The notes under the pieces: model-generated
The model's database searches: none
The model's input: only the letters and a program-made list of their open reading frames with translations
Told to the model about the DNA's origin: nothing
In this document: positions 332-63,200 of the stretch, in pieces
Position numbering within the stretch: the first letter of the stretch is position 1
Layout of the letters: each line of letters begins with the position of its first letter
Program-made: the position numbers and the translations under genes
Assembly: GCA_000002435.2 (NCBI GenBank)
Contig: CM018793.1
Reading direction: 5' to 3' (one strand)
DNA: 64,000 bases
From: Giardia intestinalis
Lineage: Eukaryota

Positions 332-1336
332 ATGCCAGTGGCAAAGCCTTTAATAAAGACTATCAAACTTTGGATGTCTGGTGGGTTCAGTTTCGGAGCT
401 CCCGCTCAAGCATCTTCCCAGCCACAAGGTAAAGCACCTGGATTCTCCTTTGGATCTGGCTTTGGCCCCGCGCAGTCAACGCAGTTAACCCAACAGCCAC
501 AGCAGTCACAGCCTGCCCCATCATTCACGTTCGGTGCATCATCCACAAGTGCACCAACCTCAGCCAACACTGGAACTACTGGCTTTGGATTCAGCTTCGC
601 GGCTAAGCCGCAGGTCTCAGGGGCTGGAGGCATCGGCCAGACAACTTCTTCCGTAGCTCCCACAACAACGGCGCCAACTACAGCATCTGCTCCTGCTCCC
701 TTTTCATTTGGGGCACCTGCTGCTCAGTCTTCACAACCTGCACAGCCCACACAACAACCACCGCCGTCAACAGCACCAGCAACCACTGCACCTTTTGCAT
801 TTGGCAAGCCGTCCGAGCCTGTCACTGTTAATAAGGCAAAGGAAGATCAGCCGTCAATAGCTAGTGGAACACAACCAGTCATGGATGCCCGGCTCGTTGA
901 ACTGGAGGGCAAAAAGGTCTCAGGTATTCTTGATAACTTGTATAGTGTTCTTTTAAAAGATTTAGGTACAGCTAACAAGCATTCTGCCGCATTGATAGCT
1001 TGCGAGAAAGACATTGAGCTTCTCGAGGAGACCATGAAACAGTTTTCCTCGAAGCTCACATATATTCAGCAAAAACAGTCTGCTACAGAAGAATCACTGC
1101 GAAAGCTATATGAGCTGCAATGTGATGTCCTTGATATTGTAAAGAAAATGGAAGATTATTCGCAGTACACTGCGCACCCCTTAACCCACGCCATCAATAC
1201 CGTGGAGAGTAATCTTCTGACCCTGGAACAGAAAATCTTGTCATCAAGCGTTATCGATAGAGAAGTACTAGAAGTGTATCAAGGTCTCCAGAGGCAGATT
1301 TCTCTTATAGCTATGCTCGAGGCGGAAGCGCAGTAA
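332..1336 (+). CDS. FG-repeat protein with C-terminal coiled coil; candidate Nup62/Nsp1-type central-channel nucleoporin
   Basis: ATG at 332 preceded by the AT-rich initiator 'tttaaagtgtttcacttttaaATG'. The N-terminal 160 aa or so carry six or more FxFG/FG repeats (GFSFG, FSFGSGFG, FTFG, FGFSF, FSFG, FAFG) set in S/T/P/Q/A-rich spacers. The C-terminal 170 aa or so has a heptad-like coiled-coil character (LVELEGKK...LEQKIL...). The antisense ORF 406..663 is a low-complexity artefact. Confidence 0.5.
   Translation: MPVAKPLIKTIKLWMSGGFSFGAPAQASSQPQGKAPGFSFGSGFGPAQSTQLTQQPQQSQPAPSFTFGASSTSAPTSANTGTTGFGFSFAAKPQVSGAGGIGQTTSSVAPTTTAPTTASAPAPFSFGAPAAQSSQPAQPTQQPPPSTAPATTAPFAFGKPSEPVTVNKAKEDQPSIASGTQPVMDARLVELEGKKVSGILDNLYSVLLKDLGTANKHSAALIACEKDIELLEETMKQFSSKLTYIQQKQSATEESLRKLYELQCDVLDIVKKMEDYSQYTAHPLTHAINTVESNLLTLEQKILSSSVIDREVLEVYQGLQRQISLIAMLEAEAQ
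377..830 (+). repeat. FG/FxFG repeat-encoding low-complexity region (protein-level repeat)
   Basis: Repeated ggnttnagnttngg-type FG codon blocks sit within S/T/A/P/Q-rich coding sequence. This region generates the spurious antisense ORF 406..663. Confidence 0.55.
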
Positions 1337-1344
1337 CTGAGTCA

Positions 1345-4300
1345 CTACTCTCCTACTGTGTGTCCTGGGCGTATGTGCCACTTTTTAAGCATTGAAATAA
1401 AGCGAGAGTTACCAATTTCAGAAGCCATGGATAGAGCTGTTTGTCCGCTACAGTTCCGCATTCCCAGCTCCTTATCTACTAACAGCAGCGCAGTTTCATA
1501 TGCATTATATTGCACACAGTACATGAGAGCGGTCATTCCTCGGTCATCTTTCATTCCACTCTCATGGGGGACAAGAGCTCTGGATAGTGCTGTATCTCCC
1601 AAGGCTATGGCGTGCATAAGGGCCGTTGCCCCCACGGCATCGCGGGCCCCACAGCCTAGAGGAATACATAATTGTGCAAATGGGAGTTTGTTGGCCTTGA
1701 TGGCATATATGAGAGACGAGTCGCAACCAGGACACCAGACGTTTGCCTCAAACGCTAGAATCTCAGCGCACTTGTAGTGTCCTGATTCTATGGCGACGAT
1801 GAGCCCGGTTTTTCCTTCCTTGGAGAGTATTTTGCCCTCGTGTGTAGATAGGTGCCTTACACCACCCACGTTCCCCACCTCCGCAGCAATCATAAGGGCT
1901 GTGATGCCTGTTTCTGTGACCGTCATTCCATATTCTTCAGAGAGAAGTGGGATGGAGGAGTTAAACGAGAGGAATGCGGCATACATCAAGGCAGTCCACC
2001 CTCTAGAGTCCTTATGACGCACTTGGTGTAAATGCTTTTTTACCTCGACTATGCTTTTCTTTTTGATAGAGTTGATTAGACCTAGCTCGCTATCACGGAG
2101 CATCGTGCTATGGGACATATTAAGTTGTGAAAGCTGCCTGACTGCATCGGGATCGTTTGCTGCAAATGGACCGGAAACAATAAGATTTGAAGAGGCTCCT
2201 AAACTGCTTTGATAACCAAAAAGGCCAGACGAGTGGGCTGATTGCCGAAGAACTTGTTGAGACGCCAAAGATGGAGATACTTGCCGAGAATTTCGCAAGA
2301 TCTGAGCGAGTCCTTTGTCATGTGTTGACCGAGCGCTTAGTGGCATTGCGCATACGCGCTCAATGCGAACCAGATCTTCCTTAGAAACGCAGTCTTTAAG
2401 CTTAGCCCAGTGGAGCTCTCCGAGTGCATCCCTAGCCGAGTCGATCAGATCAAGAGCCAGCTGTTTCATTCCCTTGCGCATAACATATTCTAGCGGAAAC
2501 ATGCCGTCTCTGCCTCTAATCATAAGTTCATACGGAGCCAGAAGCATCGCTATCTTAAGCATCCCCATTTCCAGAGCCACGGAGAGTGCAGTGGCCCCGT
2601 TCTTCTCACGCTTACCAGCATGCTCAGGTATAAGCTGAAGAATTTCTCTGGTAGGGTCATTATTCTTGACTGCGGCAATTAGAGGAGAACCTGTGTTTCG
2701 ATACAAAAGCTCTGGATGGCAAGACGTTGGTCTTTTCCGCTGCTTGATTGGTGTGCATTCGTTTGTCTCCTTTGTATCAGGCTGAGTCGTCGACAGTAAC
2801 AGAGTGCTTGCTACACTGGGAACAGCGTATTGATTAAATGTATCAACAGCAGACGCCTGCGAATTTAGAAGGATGCTCTGATTGCGTTGAAAGTCTTCCG
2901 CTAGAATAAGAATATTGACGATATCTCTGTTATTTAAACTTCGGGCTAAATCTATGGGAAGTAGATTTTGTGGACCGTGGATGCGGGATTCAAACCGAGC
3001 TAGAATGCGCACAAAGGATCGACGATTTAACCTTATAGCATGAGTTAGAGCGGTATTGGAAGAGGAATCGATGCAGCCACATTGAGACGGAGTGTACTTT
3101 TCAACACCACTTGGCAGATTATAAATCACGGATAGAATCAAACCTGTCTTCTTATCAGCGCCCACTAATAGCACCCCAGATGTTACTACGGCTTCTACTA
3201 GCTCTGTCATATTCTGGATGAGGGCGAACTCAAAGGCTTGAGTTGAAAGCAATATATTTGAGGTCAATTTCTGATGAAAAGCTTGTAGAGAAGACATGGT
3301 CTCTTCCAACTCCTTCACTAAAACAACAGCCTCATCAGATAGGAAAGCCTGCACTTGGTCGTTTTTATTTGTTACCTGCTTAATTCCCTCCGCAGAGTTG
3401 CATGCAGGGAGACTGTCATTAAGAGAAATATTAGAGACATCTAACGTTCCGCTTAAGCTACTATCCTCTCGAAGATTCTCTGCCTGACGATAGACCGGCT
3501 CAATCTTTTCGCTCCGAGAGAGAATTATGTGAGACTGAGGCCTGGGACGAGACGCTATAGAAGATAGGCTGGCAGAAGCAGTCTTTGCCTGCATATGCTG
3601 GGCTGCCGCGGTACGTAAAGTCTGAGTTCTATCAACACTACATGGAGCCTTTCTCATCATAGAAGTTCCTGACAAAGGTCTTCTGGTCCTTTCTGGAGTG
3701 ACGGCCGTCGGGATTAGCTTGTTAGCTTGAAAATACTCATACTCAAATATTCGTTGAACAGATCTCTGCAAGTCCCTAAATGACCGCAAAGATGTAATCC
3801 GCCGCAAGTAGAGAACTGTCTGCTCGAGCTCTGTGCTATACGTTCCATTAGGTACATATGCCATTGCATATGCCAGGATACTTCCCAGCTGGTTCGCGTC
3901 GTGGCAGGCGGAGACCGGTGCTTCTGGGTACATATCGTATCCTGTAGTGTGTTCCTTCCGAAATCTAAGTTGTCGAGCCATGGAGTGGATGTCACCGAAT
4001 GCGTAATCCGCGATCAAGATGGTGTCCCCAGTCACTGACGCCACAACATTTTCGAGAGAGAGGTGACCATGTATGTAGTGTCCCCCATTAATAGCCTCCA
4101 GAACAACAAGGCCTTCTATGATTCCTTTGCAGATCCTTCGCAGAAAGAGGTCTGGTGGCGCCTTCTGATGTGTCGCGGCCACTCGCAGAATATCTGCCAA
4201 AGAGCGGGAATTGTCGTACTTATACCCCAGCTTAATGGATCTCTGCGGTGACTCAGCATTATCTAGATGTATAACATCGTATGAGATAACTTGGGGCACT

Positions 4301-4458
4301 CTTATGGGAGCAATACTTCGCACCTGCTGGATGAACAGGGACACCATCTGCGGGGGCAAGTCTCGCAAAATAACGCGTCTAAAAATCTGCCGACTCTGTG
4401 TTGCTGCACTAGATGTTGCATAGATGCAGCTAATCCGGTCAGATGCGTACTCTTTCAT
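1345..4458 (-). CDS. NEK-like pseudokinase with C-terminal ankyrin ('TALM') repeats, a Giardia NEK/21.1-type architecture
   Basis: The ORF track starts at a GTG (4485); the first in-frame ATG is at 4458 (MKEYASD...). The N-terminus has a kinase-like fold with degenerate catalytic motifs: 'HGHLSLENV' in place of HRDLKPEN and 'ADYAFGD' in place of DFG. The C-terminal third holds repeated ankyrin units with the G(M/W/A)TALM signature (GWTALMYAAF, GITALMIAAEVG, GATALMHAIALG, GMTALMYCVQYN, GQTALSMASEIG). Stop TAG at 1345-1347. Confidence 0.6.
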   Translation of the reverse strand: MKEYASDRISCIYATSSAATQSRQIFRRVILRDLPPQMVSLFIQQVRSIAPIRVPQVISYDVIHLDNAESPQRSIKLGYKYDNSRSLADILRVAATHQKAPPDLFLRRICKGIIEGLVVLEAINGGHYIHGHLSLENVVASVTGDTILIADYAFGDIHSMARQLRFRKEHTTGYDMYPEAPVSACHDANQLGSILAYAMAYVPNGTYSTELEQTVLYLRRITSLRSFRDLQRSVQRIFEYEYFQANKLIPTAVTPERTRRPLSGTSMMRKAPCSVDRTQTLRTAAAQHMQAKTASASLSSIASRPRPQSHIILSRSEKIEPVYRQAENLREDSSLSGTLDVSNISLNDSLPACNSAEGIKQVTNKNDQVQAFLSDEAVVLVKELEETMSSLQAFHQKLTSNILLSTQAFEFALIQNMTELVEAVVTSGVLLVGADKKTGLILSVIYNLPSGVEKYTPSQCGCIDSSSNTALTHAIRLNRRSFVRILARFESRIHGPQNLLPIDLARSLNNRDIVNILILAEDFQRNQSILLNSQASAVDTFNQYAVPSVASTLLLSTTQPDTKETNECTPIKQRKRPTSCHPELLYRNTGSPLIAAVKNNDPTREILQLIPEHAGKREKNGATALSVALEMGMLKIAMLLAPYELMIRGRDGMFPLEYVMRKGMKQLALDLIDSARDALGELHWAKLKDCVSKEDLVRIERVCAMPLSARSTHDKGLAQILRNSRQVSPSLASQQVLRQSAHSSGLFGYQSSLGASSNLIVSGPFAANDPDAVRQLSQLNMSHSTMLRDSELGLINSIKKKSIVEVKKHLHQVRHKDSRGWTALMYAAFLSFNSSIPLLSEEYGMTVTETGITALMIAAEVGNVGGVRHLSTHEGKILSKEGKTGLIVAIESGHYKCAEILAFEANVWCPGCDSSLIYAIKANKLPFAQLCIPLGCGARDAVGATALMHAIALGDTALSRALVPHESGMKDDRGMTALMYCVQYNAYETALLLVDKELGMRNCSGQTALSMASEIGNSRFISMLKKWHIRPGHTVGE

Positions 4459-4584
4459 TTGGGAATTTTGGCGACAGATGACCACGTGGGAAATTTAAAC
4501 TGCGAAGATGCGCACGGACTAACAGATGTTCATGCAATTCTCTATACTGAGGTCATTTACATTAGAGTCGGTTAGCCCAAAAAG

Positions 4585-7245
4585 ATGTCTAATAGCAATC
4601 TTGATTCATATTTGCGTTCTGCTCGTCATGCGCCTGTGCTGCATTGTCCTTTTAGCATATATTCGGAGCTGCAGCACTTAAAAGACTCTAGCGATCTTCC
4701 CTCATTCCTTTTACGTCCGCTGAGCTATAGCTTATCCCGCTTTAACTTATTTAGAAGCGCAGGGTCCATCTCATTTTCAGCCGCACTAGCTCCTGCAGCT
4801 CCCCATGAACACTATGCATATCCGTGTCTTGCCTCACTGGTCCAATTTCTAGGCTACAGGCCAGAGGACTGTAATGCATCCGTGGAACTCGAAAAGCCTC
4901 TGCAAAATCATGATGTCTGCACATATATAGCTTCACCTGACGAGCTGGCGTGCGCTCTATCACTCCTCGGCACCCAACACACCCATCCACCTGATCTTGA
5001 GAGCGATACCACGAGCGACAGTGAAGAGCTGTCTGATGATCAACAATCGCCCAACAGGTCTCGCCCCAGAACTCACGTCGAGCTCCATTTGCAACACCTC
5101 CGGAGGTCAATTCCGCGTCCAAAATCAACTAAGCATGCAAATCTTTACTTACTTCGGGCATCATCTAGGCCTACTGTCTGTCCGAATATCATTCTCGTCG
5201 AAGACAGTGGGGGTGCTGGACTTGCTGCACTTTTTCGATCGATATGTCATCGGGTAAGTGACGTTTATAGCAATCTGCCTGTCCACAGTATCTTTTCAAC
5301 CGTTTATTCGACAAGTATTGGAGAAAAGCAGTGCTTAACAATGGCGCATAGAGGCTTGCAGATGCAATGTTGTAACGACGGTGCTACTAGTGACCTTGCT
5401 ACTGAACGTGTGCTCTTCACAGTCCAAGAATCAAAGAGAATCATGCGCTTATTCAATCGCAAAGAGCGCCAGAAAGACGGGACCTGGACAAAGAGACCCC
5501 GCAAACCCTTAGTATCTCCATCAGAGTCTATAACACAGGCTCTTTTGCGTGCCAAGGCTGCTGCTCAAACAAATAGCAAAGATGAAGATAAAGAGACATA
5601 CCAATTCTCCTCTTCTCTCTCCCCCTCTTCTTCTGAGTCCTCCCTTACTGCGCAACACAAACATAAAATTACATCCTATTTTAGCTATTTGTCAGGCTAC
5701 CCCACCCTTGCATGGCCCCCCGTAACAGTCATTGACTTTAGTCCCATTCAATACAACATCTCTACGTTTGATATGTGCAGCGAGATAAGCTTCAGCCTAG
5801 GTACGGTCCATAAGGAAGCAGGGACAAAGGCGGCTAAGCGGCCAATTCTCGTGGGCTATAGCAGACACCGCTTTAGCTACAGACGACAACTTTTTCGTGC
5901 GCAACTTTTTTATCATATGCTATCTAATTCCTCAAGCTACAAATTGGAAAGTGACAAGTATTACTATAATAGTCTAAATGATTGCATGGACCTACACGTA
6001 GAACAGGCAGTAGTTGAGAAGAGAAAAGGCCAGTTTCGTCCATTATCGGTTCAGGAAGTGCTCTGCGGGATAACTGGAGAGAGTAGATCCCTGGATGAAG
6101 TGGTGCAAAAGATCAGCGAGCCTGCTGATATCATCCCTCCCAAAAAAGTACCAGAGACGAAAAGAACCCAGAAGAAAAATGCAAAATCTAGTAGCAAGCA
6201 TTCTATCTTAGATCAAATGGTAAAGGTATCTCAGAAGCCATCAGAGGCAATAGACTGTGAGGTCGGCGAACCACTAAGAAAGCAGCTACCTTCATCCACC
6301 GTCCTAGACGCAGACTCTTTTATTAAGCTATTTAACAAAACATCAGACAGTAACATAAGCTCAATGCAGCACCTCGGAAGGGACGCACCTGTGCCGACCT
6401 TCATTAACGGTCGAGGCCGGGCGCAACATGAATACTCGCTCATTAATGAGTACTCAGCAGATGATCGGGAGGACATCTCTTTTATTAGTGTGCCGTTGTG
6501 TGAGATTGCTCCATTTAATTGTAGCCACTTATTTATGCTCAAAGATGTGGCTTCAGACATAGCCAAGTATAAAGCGCTTGCTTGTGAGGCACTTGTCTTA
6601 GCATGCTATGACACCGCCAGCTGGCAGGCGTCTAAGCATACGCTATCTCTGCGTCCAGACATACGCCAGCTTTCCAACCTTATACACTTTTGGGGAGATG
6701 CAGCGAGTATGCCCCTGGTGGCTAAGCGAAAACAGGGTGCTGCCTGGCCAGATCACACGTATGCAGACGTTATAGAAATATGTTCGTCTCTTTGTGGCGG
6801 GTTCCTCATTCTGTCGGGGTCATCTCACTTGTCACTGCATCAAGCATCTACTGGGCAGGCTAGTTGCACGATTGAAATAAGTCATATCGTGAATAGTGAA
6901 AGGATTCAGTCAGCCGTTCGCTATGTTCTGTTGTCGCAGAAAGGGTCTCGAAAGCGATACAGAGTAGACTTTGTACCGGAGACGTGTCCAGCACTTCCCG
7001 TAACAGAGAAGTACATATCGTATCTGGAACGTGCAGATCATCAAGATACCATACAATACAATATATCACTCAACATGGACCAGAAAGGCATATGGGGTGA
7101 TATTCTGTTGGCTAGTGGCGAGATCATGACCAGAAGAATGGTAGACATGGTACACATGGCGCTCCCGATGGTCGACTACGGGGCACCAAGCAGCGTACTT
7201 CAAGGTTTGAATGTCTTAAAAAAATGGTCTTATTTGTTGCTTTGA
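4585..7245 (+). CDS. hypothetical protein (886 aa); no family recognised
   Basis: Long uninterrupted ORF with ATG at 4585, divergent from the 4458 gene with a 126-bp spacer. Codon usage matches the neighbouring genes. The antisense ORFs are short. Confidence 0.45.
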   Translation: MSNSNLDSYLRSARHAPVLHCPFSIYSELQHLKDSSDLPSFLLRPLSYSLSRFNLFRSAGSISFSAALAPAAPHEHYAYPCLASLVQFLGYRPEDCNASVELEKPLQNHDVCTYIASPDELACALSLLGTQHTHPPDLESDTTSDSEELSDDQQSPNRSRPRTHVELHLQHLRRSIPRPKSTKHANLYLLRASSRPTVCPNIILVEDSGGAGLAALFRSICHRVSDVYSNLPVHSIFSTVYSTSIGEKQCLTMAHRGLQMQCCNDGATSDLATERVLFTVQESKRIMRLFNRKERQKDGTWTKRPRKPLVSPSESITQALLRAKAAAQTNSKDEDKETYQFSSSLSPSSSESSLTAQHKHKITSYFSYLSGYPTLAWPPVTVIDFSPIQYNISTFDMCSEISFSLGTVHKEAGTKAAKRPILVGYSRHRFSYRRQLFRAQLFYHMLSNSSSYKLESDKYYYNSLNDCMDLHVEQAVVEKRKGQFRPLSVQEVLCGITGESRSLDEVVQKISEPADIIPPKKVPETKRTQKKNAKSSSKHSILDQMVKVSQKPSEAIDCEVGEPLRKQLPSSTVLDADSFIKLFNKTSDSNISSMQHLGRDAPVPTFINGRGRAQHEYSLINEYSADDREDISFISVPLCEIAPFNCSHLFMLKDVASDIAKYKALACEALVLACYDTASWQASKHTLSLRPDIRQLSNLIHFWGDAASMPLVAKRKQGAAWPDHTYADVIEICSSLCGGFLILSGSSHLSLHQASTGQASCTIEISHIVNSERIQSAVRYVLLSQKGSRKRYRVDFVPETCPALPVTEKYISYLERADHQDTIQYNISLNMDQKGIWGDILLASGEIMTRRMVDMVHMALPMVDYGAPSSVLQGLNVLKKWSYLLL

Positions 7246-8426
7246 TCTGCACGGGACTCAGCCTTGAACTCAAGCGTGTCCAAGTTGTAACGCGTCACGG
7301 GGCCAGGACAACTTTAAACCCATTTCCGGCTGAGACAGAGGACTGGATCTGCGATGGAATCGGAACCATTGCCTTTTCCACTCTGCAGGCAGGGTCCACA
7401 GCACATACAAAGCATTTCTTGGCTGTATATAACACACCGCATCCCACTCTTAAGGGTGGTTCGTGCATTCAGGGCATACTCACGAGGGAGGGTCGACTTC
7501 AGCATGAGCAATTGGGCAAGGCTTTTCGACAAAAGTACGGCGACTTCTTTCCCCGCAGGTTTGTGCAGGAGGCATTTTATATTCGATCTACCAACTATGA
7601 AAGAACAAAGCAATCCGCTATGAGCTTCTTAATAGGCATGTATCCAGAGCTGGGCCAAGGGTCTTATCACGATGGTCACCAGATAACTATGCCGGCTATT
7701 CACATAGCGGAGACAGATGACTGGTTGGAACTTATGGACTGTCCGTCAATGGATAAGGCCAAGAAGTATTTTTCCAGAGATCCGGACTATGTGCAGTTGC
7801 TGGAGCTTCATCAAGAGTCGCAACAGCGCTTGAGTAGGCTTGCTGGATTTAATGAAACAGTGGGCTGGGGCGTTCTCCGTGACAATCTTATTGCTCGCAC
7901 AACCATGGGCATTCCCCTGATGAAGGGCTTTACAGAGGTTGACGTCGAAGAGTCTCGCGAACTGCACGACGCTAAGTACAGGCTTGTGTACTGCCGCTCT
8001 GATCTGGAGGAAAGGAAGAAGTATCTCCGTCCTGCCATCGGGAGGCTCTTGAAGCTCTTGACCACTGAAATGAGCGACGAGCAGAGGGTGGAGAAACTCC
8101 TGCTGTACTCGGCACACGATACCACCCTGGCTCCGTTGATGGGTGCCCTTACCGACCCAAGCAAGTACGATTGTGCCCAGCCAGATTATGCATCATCAGT
8201 GACTTTTGAGCTTTATCAGCATGAAAATGACCGATACGTACGTCTCCTCTATAATAGCAAACCATTTGTCCCGCCCTTCTGTGCCTCGATTACAATAGGC
8301 GATATCGACAGCTTATGTCTGTTCGACGATTATGTTGCAGGCGTTTCCGAGTTCTACAGTATAGACTTTGAGGAGGAGTGCTACCACACTCAGTGGCCTG
8401 ACGCTCAGGAGATCAAAGCGAACTGA
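7224..8426 (+). CDS. histidine acid phosphatase (lysosomal/prostatic acid phosphatase family), secreted or lumenal
   Basis: N-terminal signal peptide MVLFVALICTGLS. Contains the RHG motif 'VTRHGARTT' and the second catalytic motif 'LLYSAHDTTLAPLMGAL', which matches the YSAHDTT signature of the LAP/PAP family. Initiator 'cttaaaaaaATG'. The first 22 nt overlap the 3' end of the upstream gene. Confidence 0.75.
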   Translation: MVLFVALICTGLSLELKRVQVVTRHGARTTLNPFPAETEDWICDGIGTIAFSTLQAGSTAHTKHFLAVYNTPHPTLKGGSCIQGILTREGRLQHEQLGKAFRQKYGDFFPRRFVQEAFYIRSTNYERTKQSAMSFLIGMYPELGQGSYHDGHQITMPAIHIAETDDWLELMDCPSMDKAKKYFSRDPDYVQLLELHQESQQRLSRLAGFNETVGWGVLRDNLIARTTMGIPLMKGFTEVDVEESRELHDAKYRLVYCRSDLEERKKYLRPAIGRLLKLLTTEMSDEQRVEKLLLYSAHDTTLAPLMGALTDPSKYDCAQPDYASSVTFELYQHENDRYVRLLYNSKPFVPPFCASITIGDIDSLCLFDDYVAGVSEFYSIDFEEECYHTQWPDAQEIKAN

Positions 8427-10711: not shown

Positions 10712-11422
10712 TTAAGCGAGGACCACCTTGATCGAGGTCTGGACTGTTGGCACATCGATAACGGTGAGAGTTTCGTGCAGGGCGACTGTCTGTGGAAAGG
10801 AGATGCGCGAGAGACTCGACACAAGGTGTGGGTATTGGGTTTTGGTGTACTGTGTGCTTATGTGAAGTTCTTTGAGGACGTCAGTGAGCAGAGGAAGGAC
10901 CTGAGTGCATGCCCTCTTGCTTCCAAACCACACCTCTATCGTGCAGAACTCCTTCTCTAGCTTCAAGCAGCAGCCGTTGATTCCAAGCTTGGTCTTGTCT
11001 GTGGAGGCCGAGGAGTGCTCCAAAGCTCCAGTCAAAAGCAGTGTGCAGATAAAATTCCAGAGAGAATCTAGATCCGTGGGATCGACAATTGGATGTAACT
11101 TGTTAGACGCTTGATAGACCGCCTGGACTGCTTGCACCGATAGGCAACAGCGAAACCTGACGATCGATCCGCCGGCATTCATGGGATCTTCCCACAGGCA
11201 CTCTATTTGGTCTCTGAACAGTGAAATATGACCCTGCCTCAACTTTGAAATGGACGGAATGCTGTGCAAGGAAGATATAATTTCATCTAGATCAGTTGAA
11301 TCCACGCAAATCCTGCTATTCTGCTGGCTGAACGGTATCGGCAGGCTGTGCTTGGAGTAGAAACGCAAGGGCACCCAAAAGGCAACGCTCCACGAGGAGA
11401 GTAGCTCTCCCGTTGCCCCCAT
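10712..11422 (-). CDS. hypothetical protein (about 236 aa)
   Basis: The ORF track begins at a GTG (11491) and overlaps the ARL gene. The first ATG (MGATGELL...) is at 11422 and is preceded on the coding strand by 'gggtcaaaaaATG'. Confidence 0.35.
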   Translation of the reverse strand: MGATGELLSSWSVAFWVPLRFYSKHSLPIPFSQQNSRICVDSTDLDEIISSLHSIPSISKLRQGHISLFRDQIECLWEDPMNAGGSIVRFRCCLSVQAVQAVYQASNKLHPIVDPTDLDSLWNFICTLLLTGALEHSSASTDKTKLGINGCCLKLEKEFCTIEVWFGSKRACTQVLPLLTDVLKELHISTQYTKTQYPHLVSSLSRISFPQTVALHETLTVIDVPTVQTSIKVVLA

Positions 11423-11463
11423 TTTTTGACCCACTCGTTTTAAAACAAAAAGGCAACACGGAT

Positions 11464-11970
11464 TCAAGGCTGCTTTGGCACATCGAGCCACTGCGCAATT
11501 TTGTCACAGCCTTGGCCGTCCAGCCCACAAAACATAAAAACCTCTTGGACGCGGTCTTTGTCCAGTTGTAAAGTGGTCCTGTAATAATCGGCCTTTTGCG
11601 ACACCCCAGGCTGGTCTATTTTCGTTACTACCACTGCAAAACGGGAAGCACGCATGTCCGTGTGCCCCAATATGTCCTTTATCAGATCCCGCGCTTGATC
11701 GAGCGGGCTTGTCCCGTCGACCACAAAGAGGCACGTTTGCGTGCCTGAGTAGTGCTCACTCCACAGCTGCATCATCTCAGCCGAGCCACCCACGTCTATA
11801 ACTTCATATCTATTGTATTTCTCTGCAGTGAAGTTGATTGTGGGATTGACAACAGTAAACGAGTTGGTTTTTAGGTAATTGATCAGGGTGGATTTCCCAG
11901 AGAACTGCCGGCCCAGAATCAATAACTTGGCTGTTTTATGGCGAGCGGGTCTGGAGCTGGCTGCACCCAT
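11464..11970 (-). CDS. ARF-like (ARL) small GTPase
   Basis: N-terminal MGxxxS (Gly2, a candidate myristoylation site). P-loop 'GRQFSGKST', switch II 'IDVGGSA' (DxGG), and 'TKID' (NKxD-like). AT-rich initiator on the minus strand ('cttaaaaaattataaaatattATG'). Confidence 0.7.
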   Translation of the reverse strand: MGAASSRPARHKTAKLLILGRQFSGKSTLINYLKTNSFTVVNPTINFTAEKYNRYEVIDVGGSAEMMQLWSEHYSGTQTCLFVVDGTSPLDQARDLIKDILGHTDMRASRFAVVVTKIDQPGVSQKADYYRTTLQLDKDRVQEVFMFCGLDGQGCDKIAQWLDVPKQP

Positions 11971-54243: not shown

Positions 54244-57200
54244 TCACTGGTTCAGCGCTGCAAACAAGGCTACGCCGCGCTTGGTCCACTTGGCACTTTC
54301 GTCGGCTTGAATCGGTAAATCCACGGGCATGATGAAATTGGTGCTGTGTCCTGTCGTACTCAGGACACCAGCGCGCGCAAGAGTTCGGTATGCAGGGCAC
54401 CGATATATTCTACGAGCAACCTCGGGGTCGACATCCTTCCCTTGCTCATCTGGAAGGAAGTGGATGACCGGCATCCGTGAATACAGCTCGCGAGAGTATG
54501 ATTCCTGGATAGTGCTGGTTTCCATGCACCACCTGGCCCCCTCCATATAGAGTCCGTAAACGTAACACCCATCTGTGTTTGAGCGGTGCAAAGCTTCTAC
54601 ACGAGTGTTGAGCTCTGGGCCTTCGTTGAGGAAGTTGGTTGTGTTTACCATTACATTGCTAATAGTAAATCTAAAGATGAGCTTATCGATTGCAATGACA
54701 TACTTTCTAGCAAAGTTCTGCAAACAGCCGGTCAAGAAGCCCTGCGTGAAGAAGAAGCCCGAGATCCAGAAGCAGATTGGAATCCCCTTCTCAATCCAGA
54801 CATTGATGAAGGATATCCGGTCCAAGAGGTCAATATAGTACGAAGCAAGAGGCTTGAGGCATGGATAGCTATATTTAAGCCACAGTGCTGGGGTTTTGTT
54901 GTTCGACAGGTTATCCGCCAGCTCTTCAAGCTCGGCGTTCATGACGGAGAAGCCCCGAATTGCCTTTTGTAGGTCTTGGAGAGACTTCTTGATATTTATA
55001 AGCAGCTTGTTATACCTCATACATTCTTGAACAAGAACAGTGTTGAACGACTCTTCATAACGCGTGGGATACTTCAGGCTGACCGCCTCAACGTCGAAAA
55101 GGTCGGGGCAGCGGTCTAGGAGCCCCTGGGCTTGATCGAGGAGAAGAACGTTTTTGTCATTTCCGGTGGAATTCTGGGAACTGTCTTCGGCGTCTCCGTC
55201 TTTGGTGTCTTTATTGTCTTTTGGTTGCAGCTTAATCAGGTCATTCAGCATGGCCTGCACAGCTTGATTATCGCAGGTTATGGCTGCATTCATGTGGAGG
55301 CCAAAGATTTCTGGTCTGGGGTCGTTGGGAATCTGCTCTCGGATACACTCCAGATAGTCCTTATAGTTTAGATTGTCTGGAAGCTGTTTGATCGAAACAA
55401 TCTCTGTGTCGTTCATCCGACTAAAGTCATAGCCCTCCACAAGGGCTTCGTCTGAAAGGTAGTCGTTAAGGATGGTAGTCAGACACCTCTCGTCGTTATA
55501 GTCTGTTACACGCCCGCAGTAGTTTATCTTTCCGAAAAGAAACTGGAGGACGTTGTACGGCACCGAAGTGTACGAATCAATGAAGAGACCTAGCTGTTTA
55601 AAGCACATGTCAAGATCGCCAGACGTGAAGTCGTAGGAGATGTTATATCCGAGCGGGCCAAATTTGCGCCTCTCCTGAGTGACAGCATGAAAGACCGACA
55701 TGGAGAAGGTAAGCTTCTTGAAGATCTGAATCTTTGTCGGATCGCCAGACTGTATCGTCTCGTTAAGAATTTTATCGTTCAGGTTGCTGTACGTTCTAAG
55801 CACATTGTTACGCATCCCGAGGGCGGCTTCGTTTGTCATTTTAACGGAGTTCTGCAGAATAGAGACAGGGAATTGTTCGCTGGGCATAGAGGTGAGCCAC
55901 AGCCTGAAGTCGCGATGAATATTTGAGGGATCGGAGCTTAGTTGTTCAATAATCTTGTCTAGCTCTGGCATCCACGAGACCGCCAGGTGGCAGTTCATGA
56001 GAATGATCCACGAGCCCCGCTCGATACCTTGAGTAATCAACTGGCTTGCTATCGCTCCCTGTCCTTGGCCCAGAGAGATGGACTGCATCTTTCGGCTCAT
56101 CCTCATTTCGTCTGCGAAGCGGAAAAGGTCGGCCATGGGATCTGATCCGCTACTCAAAATGAAGAGCAGGGGCGTAACATTGTTGGAGTCCTTAAAGGAG
56201 AGCTCTAGATTGAAGAGTTGCGGTTCGTTAAAGCGTGGTCCAAGCTCCTGCTCTATGTATATACGAGAGTACGCGATAATCTTGTCTGGACGAATGCACA
56301 TGAGTGGTAGAAACCGCTGGAAGGGAGTGAGTGCGTCTTGGTATGGCTGTGGGATTGGAAGCGTCTCGGGTTGTGAACTCTCAAACATTCGCCTCCAGAT
56401 AGCCTGGTTTTCTTTGTTGGCAAACGTATTAGAAAAGCCTTTGAAAGTACCTGAAACGTTGTCCAGATCACATATGTTGATCCAAGACCTCTCACTGAGC
56501 CATTCGGGGCACGGGTTAGGCTTTGGGGCCGTTGCAGACGCAGACCCAATAAGCAGATATCGAAGCTCGTTGGTGTTGAGGTCTCCGGCATGGTGCTTTA
56601 TGCGTATCGCTACTAGCACGGCGAAAAGAAGCTTATGGACTTCGAAGAGAGACCTGCAAATAGTGGTGTAAAGGTAATAGGTAAAGTGATCAATCAAGTT
56701 CTCTAAGCGTACACTCAGCTCGTCGGCCTGCTCAGCGTCAGCTATTGCTTGGACAAAAAGACTAACGTACCACTGCAAGGAGTATTGGTACATGCTGTCG
56801 ATGTTCGCCATATCACAGCAGCAGAAGTACAGGATGCTAGCACGCGTGGCAACAGGGCGGTACAGCTCGCGCGTGACATCAATCTCTTTTTCGGTCTTTT
56901 CAGACTCGGCAACCTTCGTCGCGATTTCCTGGCTAGTCTTCTGAGACTGCGATAGCGTCTCTATCAGTGTTTCGTCCGACAGGATATCGCCCGTAGACTC
57001 CGAGAGAAGCCTGAGGATCGTTGCCTCAAGGGACTTGAGCTCCTGACGCATTCGACTGTTGCTTATGACAAGCTGGCTCTTCATGCTTTCGAGGTCCTGG
57101 CGTTCTCTGTTCACGACGGTGGCCAACAGCTGCTCCTCAAGCCCGGACTCGTTGATGGCAAAGTTGAGGGTTAGGACCTTGACTGCGTTTTCTGGAGAGT

Positions 57201-60200
57201 ATTTTGGGTTTGGCAAGCTTGTGACAAGGTAAACCCTGAAGTTCGGATTATATGGAATAATCTGGTCTCCTAGTTTTATCACCACAGTGTTCCCATCCTT
57301 GTAAACTTGCTTCTGCAGAATTCCGTCAAGTGCAGGGTCGATCTCCTCCAAGAGATTGACGATCATAACCGGCTTGCCAAAGCGCAATGCATTCTCCATG
57401 GTTCTGAGGAGATCTTTGTCGCTTGCTTTGCAAACTGTGAGCGAATTGTCCTTCTCCATGTTACGGACGAACTTCATGCCCTGGCCCTGTGGGTCAATGA
57501 GTAGTGGATACTTGTCACTATTGTACATAAAAAGAGCGTTCTCTATCGAGTGATTATCCGAGGGCAATCCGTTGACATGGAAATGCTGAATTTCAACCTC
57601 GTCAGAAAGTATCTCCTTCAGGTTTAAGTGTTCTCCTGTAGAGCGCGGTATGTTCAGCTCATCAATGAACTTAATCCAGCTCTGGGCAATCTTTGTTCTG
57701 AACTGCGATGTAAATGCGCCGAGGTAGACGATGCATCCAGCAGAGAACAGACAGTCTCCGAGGATGGAGCTCAGCTTCTTGTCCATGTCGGCCATAGCCT
57801 GCGTCCAACGATCCTTTTCTCCGCCAAGCCCACTTATCAGCTTTTCAGCCCTCTCGAGTTTCAGCCCTGTCTCCTCAACCTGGCGAGTAAGGTCCTCCTT
57901 CTTTTCAACAGCTGCCGAGAATTGCGCTTCCAGTTGGGCAATCTTATTTTCAACGGTATTTAGCTCATCCACCAGCTTATCCAGGTTCTGCTGGACAATT
58001 GTTAGCTCTCCCTCTGCTTCGGCAAGCTTTTGACGTTTAGGCTCGACCTGTTTCGCCACGTGATAGTACTTGTTCATAGCGTGCACCCAGGAACACATCG
58101 CCATGGCGGCCTTGGACTTCTTCTCAATCTCCTTCGGAACAAATTCTGGGTCAACAATATACTTTTGAATCTTCTTTATGATGTCTGGTTTGATGTTATC
58201 TCGATCGTAGTTCATAAGCTTGTCTAGAAGACCACGAGGATCCGAAAGTAGCTTTTTGCTAGGGTCCCAATAATCCTCGATAAACTGGCCTGGCTTATCC
58301 TTGTCTTGAACGCGATTGCCCTTGACGCCGAAGAATTGACAGACCGCTTCAAGGACCAACTTGACACCGTAGGGTGGGCTAGTGTAGTGTCCAATTTCAG
58401 AGAGATCTGAAACCTTCAGGGACTTAAGCGCTTCGAGAGCAGCTTCGAGGGCGGGAATTGCCTCTGCCAAATCGCGCTCAGCATCATTCTTGATAGCTTC
58501 ACACTCGTCGCGCTTCGCTGCAGCAATTTGTTTCTCCTTCGCGACAACTTGCCTGGTCTTATCGGCTTCTGTTTTGTCCTTATCAAGATCAACCATCATG
58601 GCCTCCACCTCTGTCTGCGTCCGCTCAAGGACGGGTTGGAGCGCAATGAGATCTTCCTGCATCTTTGCAACCATAGTTTGTGTGTCCAGAAGCTTGTGCA
58701 GCCCAGATTTAAGTTGCATCTTGTACTCATTAACCTTGTTGTACTGGGCCTGGAGAACGCGTGCAAAGGTGGATAAGAGCGTAAGATAAAGAGTTGGGGT
58801 GATATGATTTAGACGTCCTGACTCTTCCTTGTACCTCTTGGACCAGGTTTCGATAGAGATATGGAATCGCATGCATAGCTTGATAATTGAGTTCTGTAAG
58901 AGGGTCTTTTTCTCCTTCCTCTTAGTCTCATCTAGCTCCATCCCAGACTGCTCGTCCAGATAAGCATTGAGAAACTCGGATTGCGGAGAGTCTGGGAAGC
59001 ATGTCACACCCTGTTCTATTAAAGCATAATTATAGACACTGCGACCAACGTCGATCAGCGCCTCATCTGGCCATCCTGTGAACCAGTCCAGCGTGCAGCA
59101 ATTGACCAGAGATGGGAAGTTCCGAAGGCGTGTTCTGAGTGCTGCAGACGGACTGAAGGTCAGAACCAAGTGGATATTGGCCTTGACCCGGGTAAGATAC
59201 GCATCAAAGAGGGCTATCTTTGTAGGCTGGAGGCCCTTCTCCATACACAGTGGTCGTACGGCTGCGAAGATTGTCTCCATATCGTTTAGGTCATAGAGGT
59301 TCTGGATGTCAGCAGTGTTCAGGATTGCGTTGATATCTTCCACCATCGCCTCGTTGACAATCATGGAGTCTGTAAAGAGGAAGACAATCTGCTTATTGTC
59401 TACACCAGCAGTCATCAGAATCTTCTTCAAGTCATCGCGCCATTCTGGTATCCCGTAGTTCTTTCGTAGTTCAATTGTGTGTAGATCATACTCGGCAAGA
59501 AAGGCGCTAAGACGCGCCAGGCTACTACGACCAGAGCCCCCAAGGCCTATCAGCAAGCAGTTTCCACCGGGTTGGCGCAAAATGCGTGAGATCCTGCTTA
59601 GGTGCGAGATGGCATCCCTGAACATAACGAGGTTCATCTGCTTGCTGTTCTGATCGTTATAATCGTTGAGAGTGTCTGAAAGAACATGAGAAAGAGCAGG
59701 TATATCAGTAATTTCTTTGTAAGGCCGAATTGCCTGCTGTGGATTAGCAAAGTTACCAAAAAGAAGAGTGTCTGGGTGCTTGCCCTCTAAGACGTCCTTA
59801 TCCAGATCACGGTTAAAGAAGTTGCTTGTCTGCTTTGTCAAAAGCTTCTCAAACCAATGCCTATCGTGGTCATCGACCAAACGATCGTAATACACTCGCA
59901 TGTTCTCGTGGATCCAGAGTCTGATTAAGTTCTTCTCAACATCAGCGATAGAATAGGGGACGGTGGATCCATCATTGCTGAGCTTAGCGACAACGCTGAG
60001 AGGGTCTATCATGAGGATGCCCTGGAACACTTTAGAGAGATCGCGCAGATTGAAAACATAGTGGGACTTCTCTGGAGTTGGCAGAAGTTCCGCCCTTGCA
60101 CTGTTGTACACACTGAGAGAAGCGTCAACAAGAATCTGGCACCGCTTCTTCACCTCGTCAGCCAGGTCTGCTGCCGACGCCGTTGTGAAGGATCTGCCGG

Positions 60201-63200
60201 ACCACCACTTAACAATAGTCGAAAAAATGCCCTTAAGGCCGTTATCGTTCATCTCTGGAAAGACCAGAAAGTTCAGATGCCTTTGCATACGATTTGTTAT
60301 TGTCTGTCGTCCACCTCCAGGCGGCCCCATAGCCGTGATGAGATACGTGTCAATGATCTGCTTAAAGAAAAGCTCGTCTCGGTCGTACCAGCCGCCGTGA
60401 TCCACCATTTGCCGAATAAGTTCAATGACAGGAATAGCTCCGTACTTCTCCTTGTTAGGAAGATTAAGGTCATCTATGAAAAGCACAAACTTCTTCCCTG
60501 CTACAGGCCCATAAACGCCCTTCCTCCGCTTCTCCATCTTTCCATCTATAAAATCTTGGGTCTGATTCGCCCCCGTCCTAGCGGAAAAGTTCAAAAAGAT
60601 AGGGATGTTTGTAGTCATGTCACTCGCGGGGCCTCGGAGAAGGTAATTCTTTATAACACTAGTCTTACCGGTTCCAGTTTGACCCACAGCAAGCACTGGG
60701 AATCCATTTAGAAGAAGCTTACGGACAAGATAGCTCGAGCGAACGGTGTCGGCTGTGGGAATGAAGATGTCTTGGAATTCAACGGTCTTGTTGGGACCTG
60801 TCCCCAGGCTGTCAATGGAAAATTCTGGGATTGTCTGCATCCATGGCACCCAGCGCGGTTGGTTCTCACCTTCTTCGTTATCATCCATAGTTACTTTGGC
60901 ATCTATCGGCGGATAGACAAAACAGTAATCGTAAATAGTCGTTGGATGACCGGTCTGGGGGTCTTTTTCAGGAAGCGGAAAATCTGCCAAGTAGCCGCCC
61001 TCGTTGATCCTTGCTCTTAGCCAGTTGTCAAAGCGCTTTCTGTCGTCTTCTGTCGCGATATTGCTGCCAACACCCCAAGCCAGAGCGAAGAAGAAGAAGA
61101 CCTCGAGATAAGTGTTCAGTGTGTCGATCTTCTGTTCCTCAATGACATTAAACTCATTTGGCTTGAACTCTCGGATGAAGCAATCAAGGATTTTAGTCGT
61201 TGCATGTATAAGATTTTGAGGGCACGATTTTATCATGCTCTGCGTGTTTTTGGCTACAAAATCAAGTGAGTCGTTGAGGTGTGAAACGAACAACTCCTTA
61301 AAGCGCTTTGCCACATCGGAGTACCTCTCCGTGACACCGAGGCGCGACTTCATCGAGGTTCCGCGAGAAGAATCAGCGTTTGCACTCTTTCCACGAGCAG
61401 CATTAGTCCCGACAACGCGCAAATCATCAGGAAGACGGTCAATCCATGTGTCGACATAGGCTGATGAGCTGACTGTGTCCAACCCATTGAAGAAGATCAT
61501 GCCTGCACGACTGACGGTGGCTGGGGAGGCTTCGGCGAGATCCTCGACTTCAAAAACAAGACTAATCACATTCGTTAAGGCAATGATTTCGCCAGATGTC
61601 AAACAGAGTTTCTTGTTGTCATCGAGAACAGTGTTCATAGACTCTATCCACAAGGCATCGATGGGTCCACAGATATGGAGCCACTGCCGCACATGGTCGA
61701 ACTTCCGGACGAATGCCGGTCCGTTCACCTGAGATATCGTTAAGATATTCTTGTCGGTGACACCATCGTTTTGCAAATACATAGACTGCTCAATATAAGT
61801 CGTATGCGCATTGTACGCAGCCACCGACTTTCTGATCAGGTCGGCCAGAATACCATCAGACCATTCGTGGGATACCAGGTCAAATTCACCATAAAGCTGG
61901 CCCATCGTGATAGACTTTGGATTAATGCGGTGGATCACTGCCTTCATGAATGTGTAGTCCTCGGGGATCTCCTTGTCCGCCTCAGCCAGGGTCATGCCGG
62001 GGTTGCTTCGGAGAAGCTTATTAAAGTGTGCAAGTCTAGCGTCATATTCTTCCTGATTAAGCTTGTTGAGTGCCAAGGCCAGCGCCTCAAGAGCCACGGT
62101 CTTTCCAGAAGACGTCTGGCCAACGGTCATGAGACCGTGACGAAGCAGAACAGTCTGGTACACCTCGATGACCTTATTGATGAACGATTCCTCTATCTGC
62201 ATATAGCCCATCTGATTGGACCGCAGCACGTATGTAATGCTTTCAATAAGTTTGGTGAAGTCGACATGCGGTGATTCTGTCCCTGGGAACATATCCTTGA
62301 CGATGTTGCCAAAAAGAATAACGTCATTGCTGAGGAACTTAGGTACGTTGACCTCTTTAATAGCGCGCAAAAGAATTTGCTCCTCTGTAACAGTTAGCTT
62401 TCCGTTGGACGTGTACTCCCGAATCATGTTGCCGGCAGCCTGAAGAGTGGTGTTGAGCGCACGCATGCCAAAGTCGTAGTGGTCCTGTGACGATAGTTGT
62501 TCTGAACTAAGCTTAAACGACGCAGTCGTCTTACGGGCAAGGATCTTCGCATTCTTGTATCCAAAGCTATAGAGCCGTATTTCTGCAATAAGAGAATAGT
62601 CTGGAACCATACACGAAACCGACCTAAACAAAGCCTTAAGATTGTCAGGCAGCTCAACGCGACCAGCGTATCCTGGGTTCATTGTGATGAACACAGCGCA
62701 GGTTGGCTTGAGGCTGATCTCGCGGCCTTCAAAGAGGAAGCGCTCCTGCCTGTTAATGATGGCACGTTGAATCGTCAAAATCTGCTGAGCGATAACAGAA
62801 AGAACCTCTATGTCAATGCGGTTGAATTCATCGAAGCAGCTCCAAGCTCCAGACATCGCCAGTCCGGTGAAGAACTTCCCCATGGCCTTGTAGTCTAGAC
62901 CCTCAGAGCAGTTGAAGACAATAACTGGCTGTGCGAGGGCTTTTGCAAGATCCTTTGTAGACTCTGTTTTTCCTGTTCCCGCAGGTCCTGCGGGAGCGCC
63001 TCCAAGATAGTTTGAAAGGGCAGAGGTCAAGGTAATATAGATTCTATCAGTAAGAGGAGTAATGACAAGTCGGGATGTATTGCCTAAATATTCAAAACCA
63101 TAGGGATAAGTGGTCTGAACCTGTCGGATATGCATGTCGATTTGATTATTGGTCTTGGTGAAATAAGTTCTGGCCGCAGACTGGACCTGAATAACACCGG

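Follow-up and report, generated by a model that had tools for sequence, protein, structure and literature searches.

The window analyzed here is a 64,000-nucleotide stretch of Giardia intestinalis DNA (GenBank assembly GCA_000002435.2, contig CM018793.1), and the gene in question, GL50803_7552, lies near its start on the plus strand. The longest open reading frame (ORF) of this gene (332..1336) begins with an ATG and encodes 334 amino acids (aa) followed by a stop codon, and its product is 100% identical to GL50803_7552 of G. intestinalis WB; with DHA2_150286, a protein of assemblage A2, it shares 98% identity. NCBI names GL50803_7552 a hypothetical protein; UniRef/UniProt (V6TLP7 / A0A644FAW5) applies the automatic name "Nucleoporin NSP1-like C-terminal domain-containing protein," and a Pfam match to such a domain was not reproducible here. 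From a phenylalanine-glycine (FG) repeat domain at the N terminus and a C-terminal helix that aligns with the first segment (CCS1) of the pan-eukaryotic Nup62/Nsp1 coiled coil, we consider it probable, at roughly 0.7, that the product is a miniature, highly divergent Nup62/Nsp1 orthologue, that is, a central-channel FG-nucleoporin. The assignment is computational and of moderate strength, an automatic Nsp1-like label is already present in UniProt, and the protein is no surprise in kind.

Gene start and domain architecture of GL50803_7552

The true coding sequence is probably shorter than the longest ORF, running from 374 to 1336 (320 aa from Met15, beginning MSGGFSFGAP), because the position of Met15 is the first residue of the orthologues, other lineages have no upstream ATG or have it in a different frame, and the current RefSeq model (.2) of GL50803_7552 has 320 aa; the 5′ end of the 334-aa ORF would thus be over-extended. 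The orthologues concerned are those of assemblage B (P0002/P0014), of two other Giardia lineages (P0003/P0027 and P0004), and of the distant lineage that carries P0028. In assemblage B, the upstream ATG lies in another frame and opens a short upstream ORF that ends in TAG, and in a DNA alignment of three lineages, the sequence from SRR17450160 has no upstream ATG at all; among the lineages compared, only assemblage A has the in-frame ATG at 332. The same alignment contains an invariant A/T-rich element, CTTTAATAA (348..356, plus strand), 17 to 25 nucleotides 5′ of the ATG at 374, which is a candidate initiator or promoter element. With its corrected start, the protein begins MSGGFSFG, like the M(S/A/G)..F(S/N)FG start of Nup62/Nsp1 in many eukaryotes; among diatom, oomycete, and fungal members, the N termini read MASFNFG, MGFSFG, MSFNFG, MSFSFG, and MAFNFG (PMC2951903, supplementary file 55). 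Residue numbers below are those of the 334-aa ORF, and all features of the gene lie on the plus strand.

The FG-repeat domain (386..805, residues 19-158) comprises six FG clusters, in order GFSFG, GFSFGSGFG, SFTFG, GFGFSF, PFSFG, and PFAFG, separated by uncharged spacers of Ala, Ser, Pro, Thr, Gly, and Gln. Within residues 15-165, every one of the 14 phenylalanines is part of an FG-type motif (FG, FxFG, or GFGFSF), and only 4 of the 151 residues are charged, the remainder being rich in the same six amino acids. Both motif counts far exceed those of shuffled sequences: there are 7 FG dipeptides against a shuffle mean of 1.7 (p = 0.0002) and 5 FxFG motifs against a mean of 0.14, a number reached by none of 100,000 shuffles. 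These counts bear out the N-terminal array of FxFG/FSFG repeats in Ser/Thr/Pro/Gln spacers that the sequence-only reading of this DNA had described. Across four lineages of the G. intestinalis complex, 12 of the 14 phenylalanines are invariant, compared with 38% of the other residues of the N-terminal domain. Conserved motifs amid drifting spacers are the typical pattern of FG-nucleoporin domains. AlphaFold2 assigns residues 1-185 predicted local distance difference test (pLDDT) values below 50, indicating disorder. The FG domain is followed by a linker, KPSEPVTVNKAKEDQPSIASGTQPV (806..880, residues 159-183), which is the sole charged stretch ahead of the helices and is non-helical in both of our AlphaFold2 models.

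When the C-terminal domain alone was modeled by AlphaFold2 with five orthologues, three helices were obtained at a mean pLDDT of 85.7. The long helix (881..1162, residues 184-277) is 94 aa in length and contains LRKLYELQCDVLDIVKKMED, the most conserved block of the Giardia family. The two short helices, each delimited by the model together with the heptad pattern, comprise residues 283-304 (1178..1243), starting at a conserved HPLTHAINTVE, and residues 310-333 (1259..1330), which include the conserved EVLEVYQGLQRQISLIAMLEA. A hydrophobic periodicity of 3.5 residues is pronounced in this domain (power 127, against 10.6 ± 10.9 after shuffling, with 0 of 5000 shuffles reaching the observed value), and a single heptad register spans all 148 residues, in which Leu, Ile, Val, or Met occupy 58% of the a/d positions and 20% of the others. 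Three-quarters (75%) of the C-domain residues are invariant in the four G. intestinalis-complex lineages. A helical, heptad-patterned C-terminal coil had been anticipated from the translation, and this part of the prediction stands; its length, given there as about 170 aa, is closer to 150 aa.

Comparison of the C-terminal domain with the Nup62/Nsp1 family

Full-length, syntenic orthologues of GL50803_7552 occur in at least four Giardia lineages. An exhaustive phmmer search with the C-domain against 1.84 billion representatives matched P0003, P0028, and, through repeat inflation, P0029, and a profile search of a 5.8-billion-sequence set yielded nothing beyond these. The distant P0028 (271 aa) is 32% identical and matches the C-domain query with an E value of 5.6e-16; synteny supports its orthology, as the convergent gene downstream of it is 44% identical to the ankyrin-repeat gene of the window. 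P0029, an unrelated protein of 1217 aa with six tandem repeats of ~110 aa, matches the C-terminal 85 residues of the GL50803_7552 product with a summed E value of 5e-12 (for example, SSIVDASIIDVYEGI against SSSVIDREVLEVYQGL). This match probably represents a chance similarity of amphipathic helices inflated by the repeats.

For comparison with the family as a whole, we built a CCS1 profile by transcribing the relevant columns for 32 taxa of a published Nup62 alignment (Neumann et al. 2010, PMC2951903, supplementary file 55). Represented in it are animals, fungi, plants, green and red algae, Dictyostelium, Naegleria, Trichomonas, stramenopiles, kinetoplastids, and apicomplexans. No gap is needed to align the Giardia proteins with this profile, positions 2-88 of which fall on residues 190-276 (899-1159), inside the long helix. 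In hhalign, the alignment of Giardia C-domains matches the 32-taxon profile with a probability of 87.9% and an E value of 3.2e-6 over 88 gapless columns. The score is 36.4; column shuffles that preserve the heptad pattern yield 14.3 ± 2.9 (maximum 23.7, n = 150), which places the observed value 7.6 standard deviations above this null, and the reversed alignment yields 15.2. Rotation of the columns by multiples of 7 was discarded as an invalid null because the matching segment remains intact, and heptad-preserving shuffles were used instead.

Searches of individual sequences with the same profile gave a concordant register. Using hmmsearch, the proteins of five Giardia lineages scored 14.6, 17.0, 16.7, 10.7, and 17.7 bits; none of 1000 plain shuffles reached these scores, reversed sequences gave 3-9 bits, and, per 2000 heptad-preserving shuffles, 11, 1, 1, 33, and 1, respectively, did as well. 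The WB protein and P0028 are matched in the same register that their own alignment has, despite an identity of 32%. Among the 166 stop-to-stop segments of the window, the best match to the CCS1 profile is ORF 332..1336. Within the alignment, ELEGKKVSGILDNLY coincides with the start of the Nup62 family domain (for example, LKGKTVKQVLEQF in Trichomonas and ITGKTVEEIIKEW in plants), and LRKLYELQCDVLDIVKKMED faces the Nup62 block of highest conservation, ELDFILSQQKELEDLLSPLEE (eLdfIlsQQkELedlLspLEe; ..L..I...Q.EL...L...E).

The origin of this signal within the family is uneven. A profile of ten non-opisthokont bona fide Nup62s (from plants, Volvox, Dictyostelium, Naegleria, Trichomonas, Phytophthora, and diatoms) gave 14.7-22.7 bits with E values down to 4.6e-9, scores reached by 0 to 2 of 2000 heptad shuffles. 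A plant-only CCS1 profile matched in the same register with an hhalign probability of 62%, and one built from the divergent kinetoplastid- and apicomplexan-type members alone reached 86%, its match being confined to columns 1-43 of the Giardia helix. The non-opisthokont members thus supply the CCS1 signal, and opisthokonts alone give nothing.

As a control, we used a coiled-coil profile of Nup54 drawn from 23 taxa of the same survey (Neumann et al. 2010, PMC2951903). It matches the Giardia protein at background level (hhalign probability 4%, score 17.1; 2.7-8.9 bits), and the translation contains no trace of, and no room for, the Nup54 alpha/beta domain with its signature W..A...NPDP...PVP..GF..L..R. 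The hidden Markov model survey of Neumann et al. 2010 had listed seven Giardia nucleoporins, including Nup54, with no Nup62 among them, and had not found the scaffold nucleoporin Nup93/Nic96 in Giardia (PMC2951903), in keeping with the sequence-only reading's remark that few pore components have been assigned in this organism. We considered whether GL50803_7552 is itself the Giardia "Nup54" of that survey and rejected this identity, as the survey's entry, gi|159117887, is a different protein. The latter bears the Nup54 signature EKLWLEARRCCPDCTRYSPVLVYGFEQLAARAAAH (PMC2951903, supplementary file 53). Giardia plausibly possesses both Nup62 and Nup54 subunits, and gi|159117887 is a candidate coiled-coil partner of the GL50803_7552 product.

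The Nup62 assignment and its alternatives

The arrangement of the Giardia protein follows that of Nup62/Nsp1, in which an FxFG domain beginning at the very N terminus precedes a C-terminal heptad coiled coil, and its spacers are uncharged and rich in Ser, Thr, Pro, and Ala like those of vertebrate Nup62. It is considerably smaller, with 320 aa and six FG clusters compared with 522 aa for the human and 823 aa for the yeast family member. A similarity to CCS1 links it to the family; a CCS2/CCS3 match, the W-D/NGEKI motif, and recognition by Pfam or by opisthokont profiles are lacking. Nup54/Nup57 and Nup58/Nup49 likewise combine an FG region with a coiled-coil anchor, but their repeats are of the GLFG or plain FG type, whereas those of the Giardia protein are FxFG. 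The case for Nup62 rests on a conjunction of moderate strength: an end-to-end, gapless, and register-consistent match, nulls that respect the heptads, the Nup54 control, and the FG domain as an independent feature. Lesser pointers in the same direction are human Nup62 as the top PDB match of the full-length protein, the MSGGFSFG start, and the UniRef name, and a Giardia Nup62 would occupy the place left empty by the 2010 survey. On these grounds, the FG-nucleoporin of Nup62/Nsp1 type that had been suggested from the translation is supported, through its architecture and the match to the pan-eukaryotic CCS1 profile.

A number of observations weigh against this assignment, several of them concerning the coiled coil itself. 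When applied to 177,635 PDB sequences, the 32-taxon CCS1 profile gives coiled coils other than Nup62 up to 22.4 bits, and the HMMER scores of the Giardia proteins (11-23 bits) fall within the range of such unrelated sequences; taken alone, they would be marginal in a proteome search, with E values that we extrapolate to roughly 1e-3 to 1e-2 for ~5000 proteins. The CCS1 evidence is therefore only moderate and leans on the prior given by the FG domain. In addition, the subset profiles were picked after the fact, and for this reason we take the 32-taxon result as the a priori test. Fold searches with both AlphaFold2 models returned generic coiled coils alone. The 57 residues that follow the long helix score no differently from shuffles against the profiles of Nup62 CCS2 (signature D.ERE.TY.LAE...) and CCS3 (signature DP..QI..ILN.H...L.WID), and the Giardia C-domain, at ~150 aa, falls ~45 aa short of the about 195 aa of its Nup62 counterpart. 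By eye, HPLTHAI (or CPLTQAL) could be read as the DPLxQI start of CCS3 with CCS2 deleted, a reading that we did not retain as it is statistically unsupported. The W-D/NGEKI hallmark of most Nup62s is absent from the C-domain, which lacks tryptophan altogether, and the aligned residues in Giardia read ...ACEKDIELLEE.... In the 32-taxon alignment, kinetoplastid, apicomplexan, and diatom sequences show a degenerate form of this motif as well; TbNup62 and the apicomplexan Nup62 candidates are, like the Giardia protein, without the Trp of W-D and are assigned to the family all the same, but they keep recognizable CCS2/CCS3 columns, which the Giardia protein does not.

Database and profile searches add to these points. 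The sequence-only reading had named Pfam Nsp1_C (PF05064) as a check on the C-terminal domain, and in hmmscan neither the protein nor its C-domain, any of seven orthologues, or P0028 matched it at E ≤ 10; the precomputed Pfam field of GL50803_7552 is likewise empty. The Nup54 family (PF13874), also named there, scored 13.4 bits (E value of 0.08) where 30.5 bits are required, and the general Pfam scan at E ≤ 10, used in place of a dedicated Nup58 profile, listed no Nup58 family. The best Pfam matches are to the unrelated helical families Antigen_Bd37, Paralemmin, and TMF_TATA_bd. A PDB sequence search with the full-length protein returned human Nup62 as its best match (E value of 0.017), but most of that alignment rests on low-complexity sequence, and a search with just the profile of the C-domain retrieved no Nup62 from the PDB. 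Our metazoan Nup62 profile, built from 23-30 sequences and tried both with CtNsp1 and ScNsp1 included and without them, recovers the Nsp1 proteins of Chaetomium and yeast, a pore protein of 709 aa (9hcj), and two chains named NUP62 (9sob) with E values of 1e-25 to 1e-39; against the Giardia proteins, it gives 2.7-6.2 bits, no better than for reversed or shuffled sequences, and hhalign is likewise at background. Metazoan-only, fungal-only, and opisthokont-only Nup62 profiles all leave the Giardia protein undetected. A local match of 17-20 columns with the metazoan profile, pairing SKLTYIQQKQ with ELDFILSQQ, was dropped because the significant gapless alignment sets the Nup62 block opposite LRKLYELQCDVL instead.

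The taxonomic range of the family and the literature count on the same side. The phmmer and profile searches of 1.84 billion and 5.8 billion sequences found no homologue outside Giardia, and the orthologues in Spironucleus and Trepomonas for which a search had been suggested were not detectable in either. Even within Giardia, the N-terminal region of P0028 has 2 FG dipeptides and no FxFG. Literature searches found no localization or interaction data on GL50803_7552, and no paper that names it or describes a Giardia Nup62.

Some of these observations would fit a different FG-nucleoporin of the pore with a coiled-coil anchor, either of the Nup58/Nup49 or Nup54/Nup57 type or a lineage-specific protein with a convergent likeness to CCS1. 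The three channel nucleoporins share a plan of FG repeats and a three-segment coiled coil, the sole nucleoporin match in Pfam is the subthreshold one to Nup54, the tail resembles neither CCS2 nor CCS3 of Nup62, and unrelated PDB coiled coils attain the same HMMER scores. We regard this as unlikely, given that the Nup54 coiled-coil profile remains at background, whereas Nup62 CCS1 lies 7.6 standard deviations above its null; that the Nup54 alpha/beta domain and signature are lacking here and carried by a different Giardia protein; and that the protein has FxFG repeats and starts, with MSGGFSFG, as Nup62 orthologues do. Somewhat less probable again is a Giardia-specific coiled-coil protein outside the pore, cytoskeletal or vesicle-associated, with a chance low-complexity N terminus of Phe and Gly. 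Giardia has many lineage-specific coiled-coil proteins, and such an origin would suit a family that is detectable in Giardia alone, has few FG motifs in its distant orthologue, goes unrecognized by the curated Pfam model, and has no localization data in the literature searched. It would not, however, account for the selective conservation of the FxFG phenylalanines within drifting spacers, for a highly non-random motif excess, or for a CCS1 similarity that is end-to-end, gapless, and in register and that withstands both the heptad-preserving nulls and the Nup54 control. That the ORF is a chance reading frame and no real gene can practically be dismissed: apart from the mechanical nature of the ORF listing, nothing speaks for it, and set against it are the syntenic full-length orthologues, the invariance of the C-domain, the 32% identity with P0028, the conserved downstream neighbor, and the annotation of the gene in both NCBI and UniProt.

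If the protein is indeed a Nup62/Nsp1 orthologue, its mode of action can be outlined as follows, although pore residence, receptor binding, heterotrimer formation, and the identity of the partners are all steps that we infer. The ~150-aa N-terminal domain would be natively unfolded, almost uncharged, and cohesive, projecting its six FxFG/FG clusters into the pore channel. There, the clusters could offer low-affinity hydrophobic docking sites to importin-beta-type receptors and NTF2-like carriers, and the domain would shut out inert macromolecules. Anchoring of the FG domain would fall to the C-terminal ~150 aa, whose amphipathic helices with heptad repeats (a 94-aa helix and two more of about 22-24 aa) would pair with other coiled-coil nucleoporins in a parallel, heteromeric coiled coil.

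In other eukaryotes, the CCS2/CCS3 module completes the Nup62-Nup54-Nup58 heterotrimer, which is docked on Nup93/Nic96. The shortened and unmatched tail of the Giardia protein makes an anchoring unlike the canonical Nup62-Nup54-Nup58-Nup93 arrangement possible. GL50803_7552 could then encode a stripped-down Nup62 of which CCS1 alone is recognizable, CCS2 and CCS3 having been replaced or lost, and the channel would be attached in a different and simpler way. We hold this version to be doubtful, if still worth entertaining; were it true, Giardia would show in nature how little is needed to anchor an FG domain and could serve as a minimal model for it.

The assignment as a Nup62/Nsp1 orthologue has implications in several directions. 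Few model eukaryotes have a nuclear pore as poorly defined as that of Giardia, and a Nup62-type FG-nucleoporin could serve as an anchor for mapping it, or as a bait, in a binucleate and highly reduced eukaryote. A Nup62 family that reaches the diplomonads would bear on reconstructions of the ancestral pore, and an FG domain as small as this one (about 150 aa with six motifs) on the minimal requirements of a selective barrier.

Neighboring genes in the window

The genes around GL50803_7552 are tightly packed. Convergent with it on the minus strand is a gene of 1046 aa (1345-4485) with C-terminal ankyrin repeats (Ank_2, 9e-39), the stop codon of which lies 8 nucleotides from that of GL50803_7552; this neighbor is conserved in three other Giardia lineages, with 44% identity in the most distant. 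On the other side, a divergent gene on the minus strand (1-310) starts at nucleotide 310, 21-63 nucleotides from the start of GL50803_7552. Its orthologues in lineages L002 and L003 are tagged Phospholip_B (PF04916), phospholipase B-like. Lineage L001, the distant one, has a gene for a different protein of 2355 aa in the upstream position, and 5 nucleotides separate the two start codons.

Farther along, the plus strand carries an ORF of 886 aa without a Pfam match (4585-7245) and a histidine phosphatase branch-2 ORF (7224-8426; His_Phos_2, 6.5e-69). The latter overlaps the end of the former by 22 nucleotides, reflecting either a true overlap or a later start of the downstream ORF. An eIF4E-like ORF of 259 aa (10712-11491; IF4E, 1.2e-9) lies on the minus strand, as does a very long ORF of 3178 aa toward the end of the window (54244-63780).

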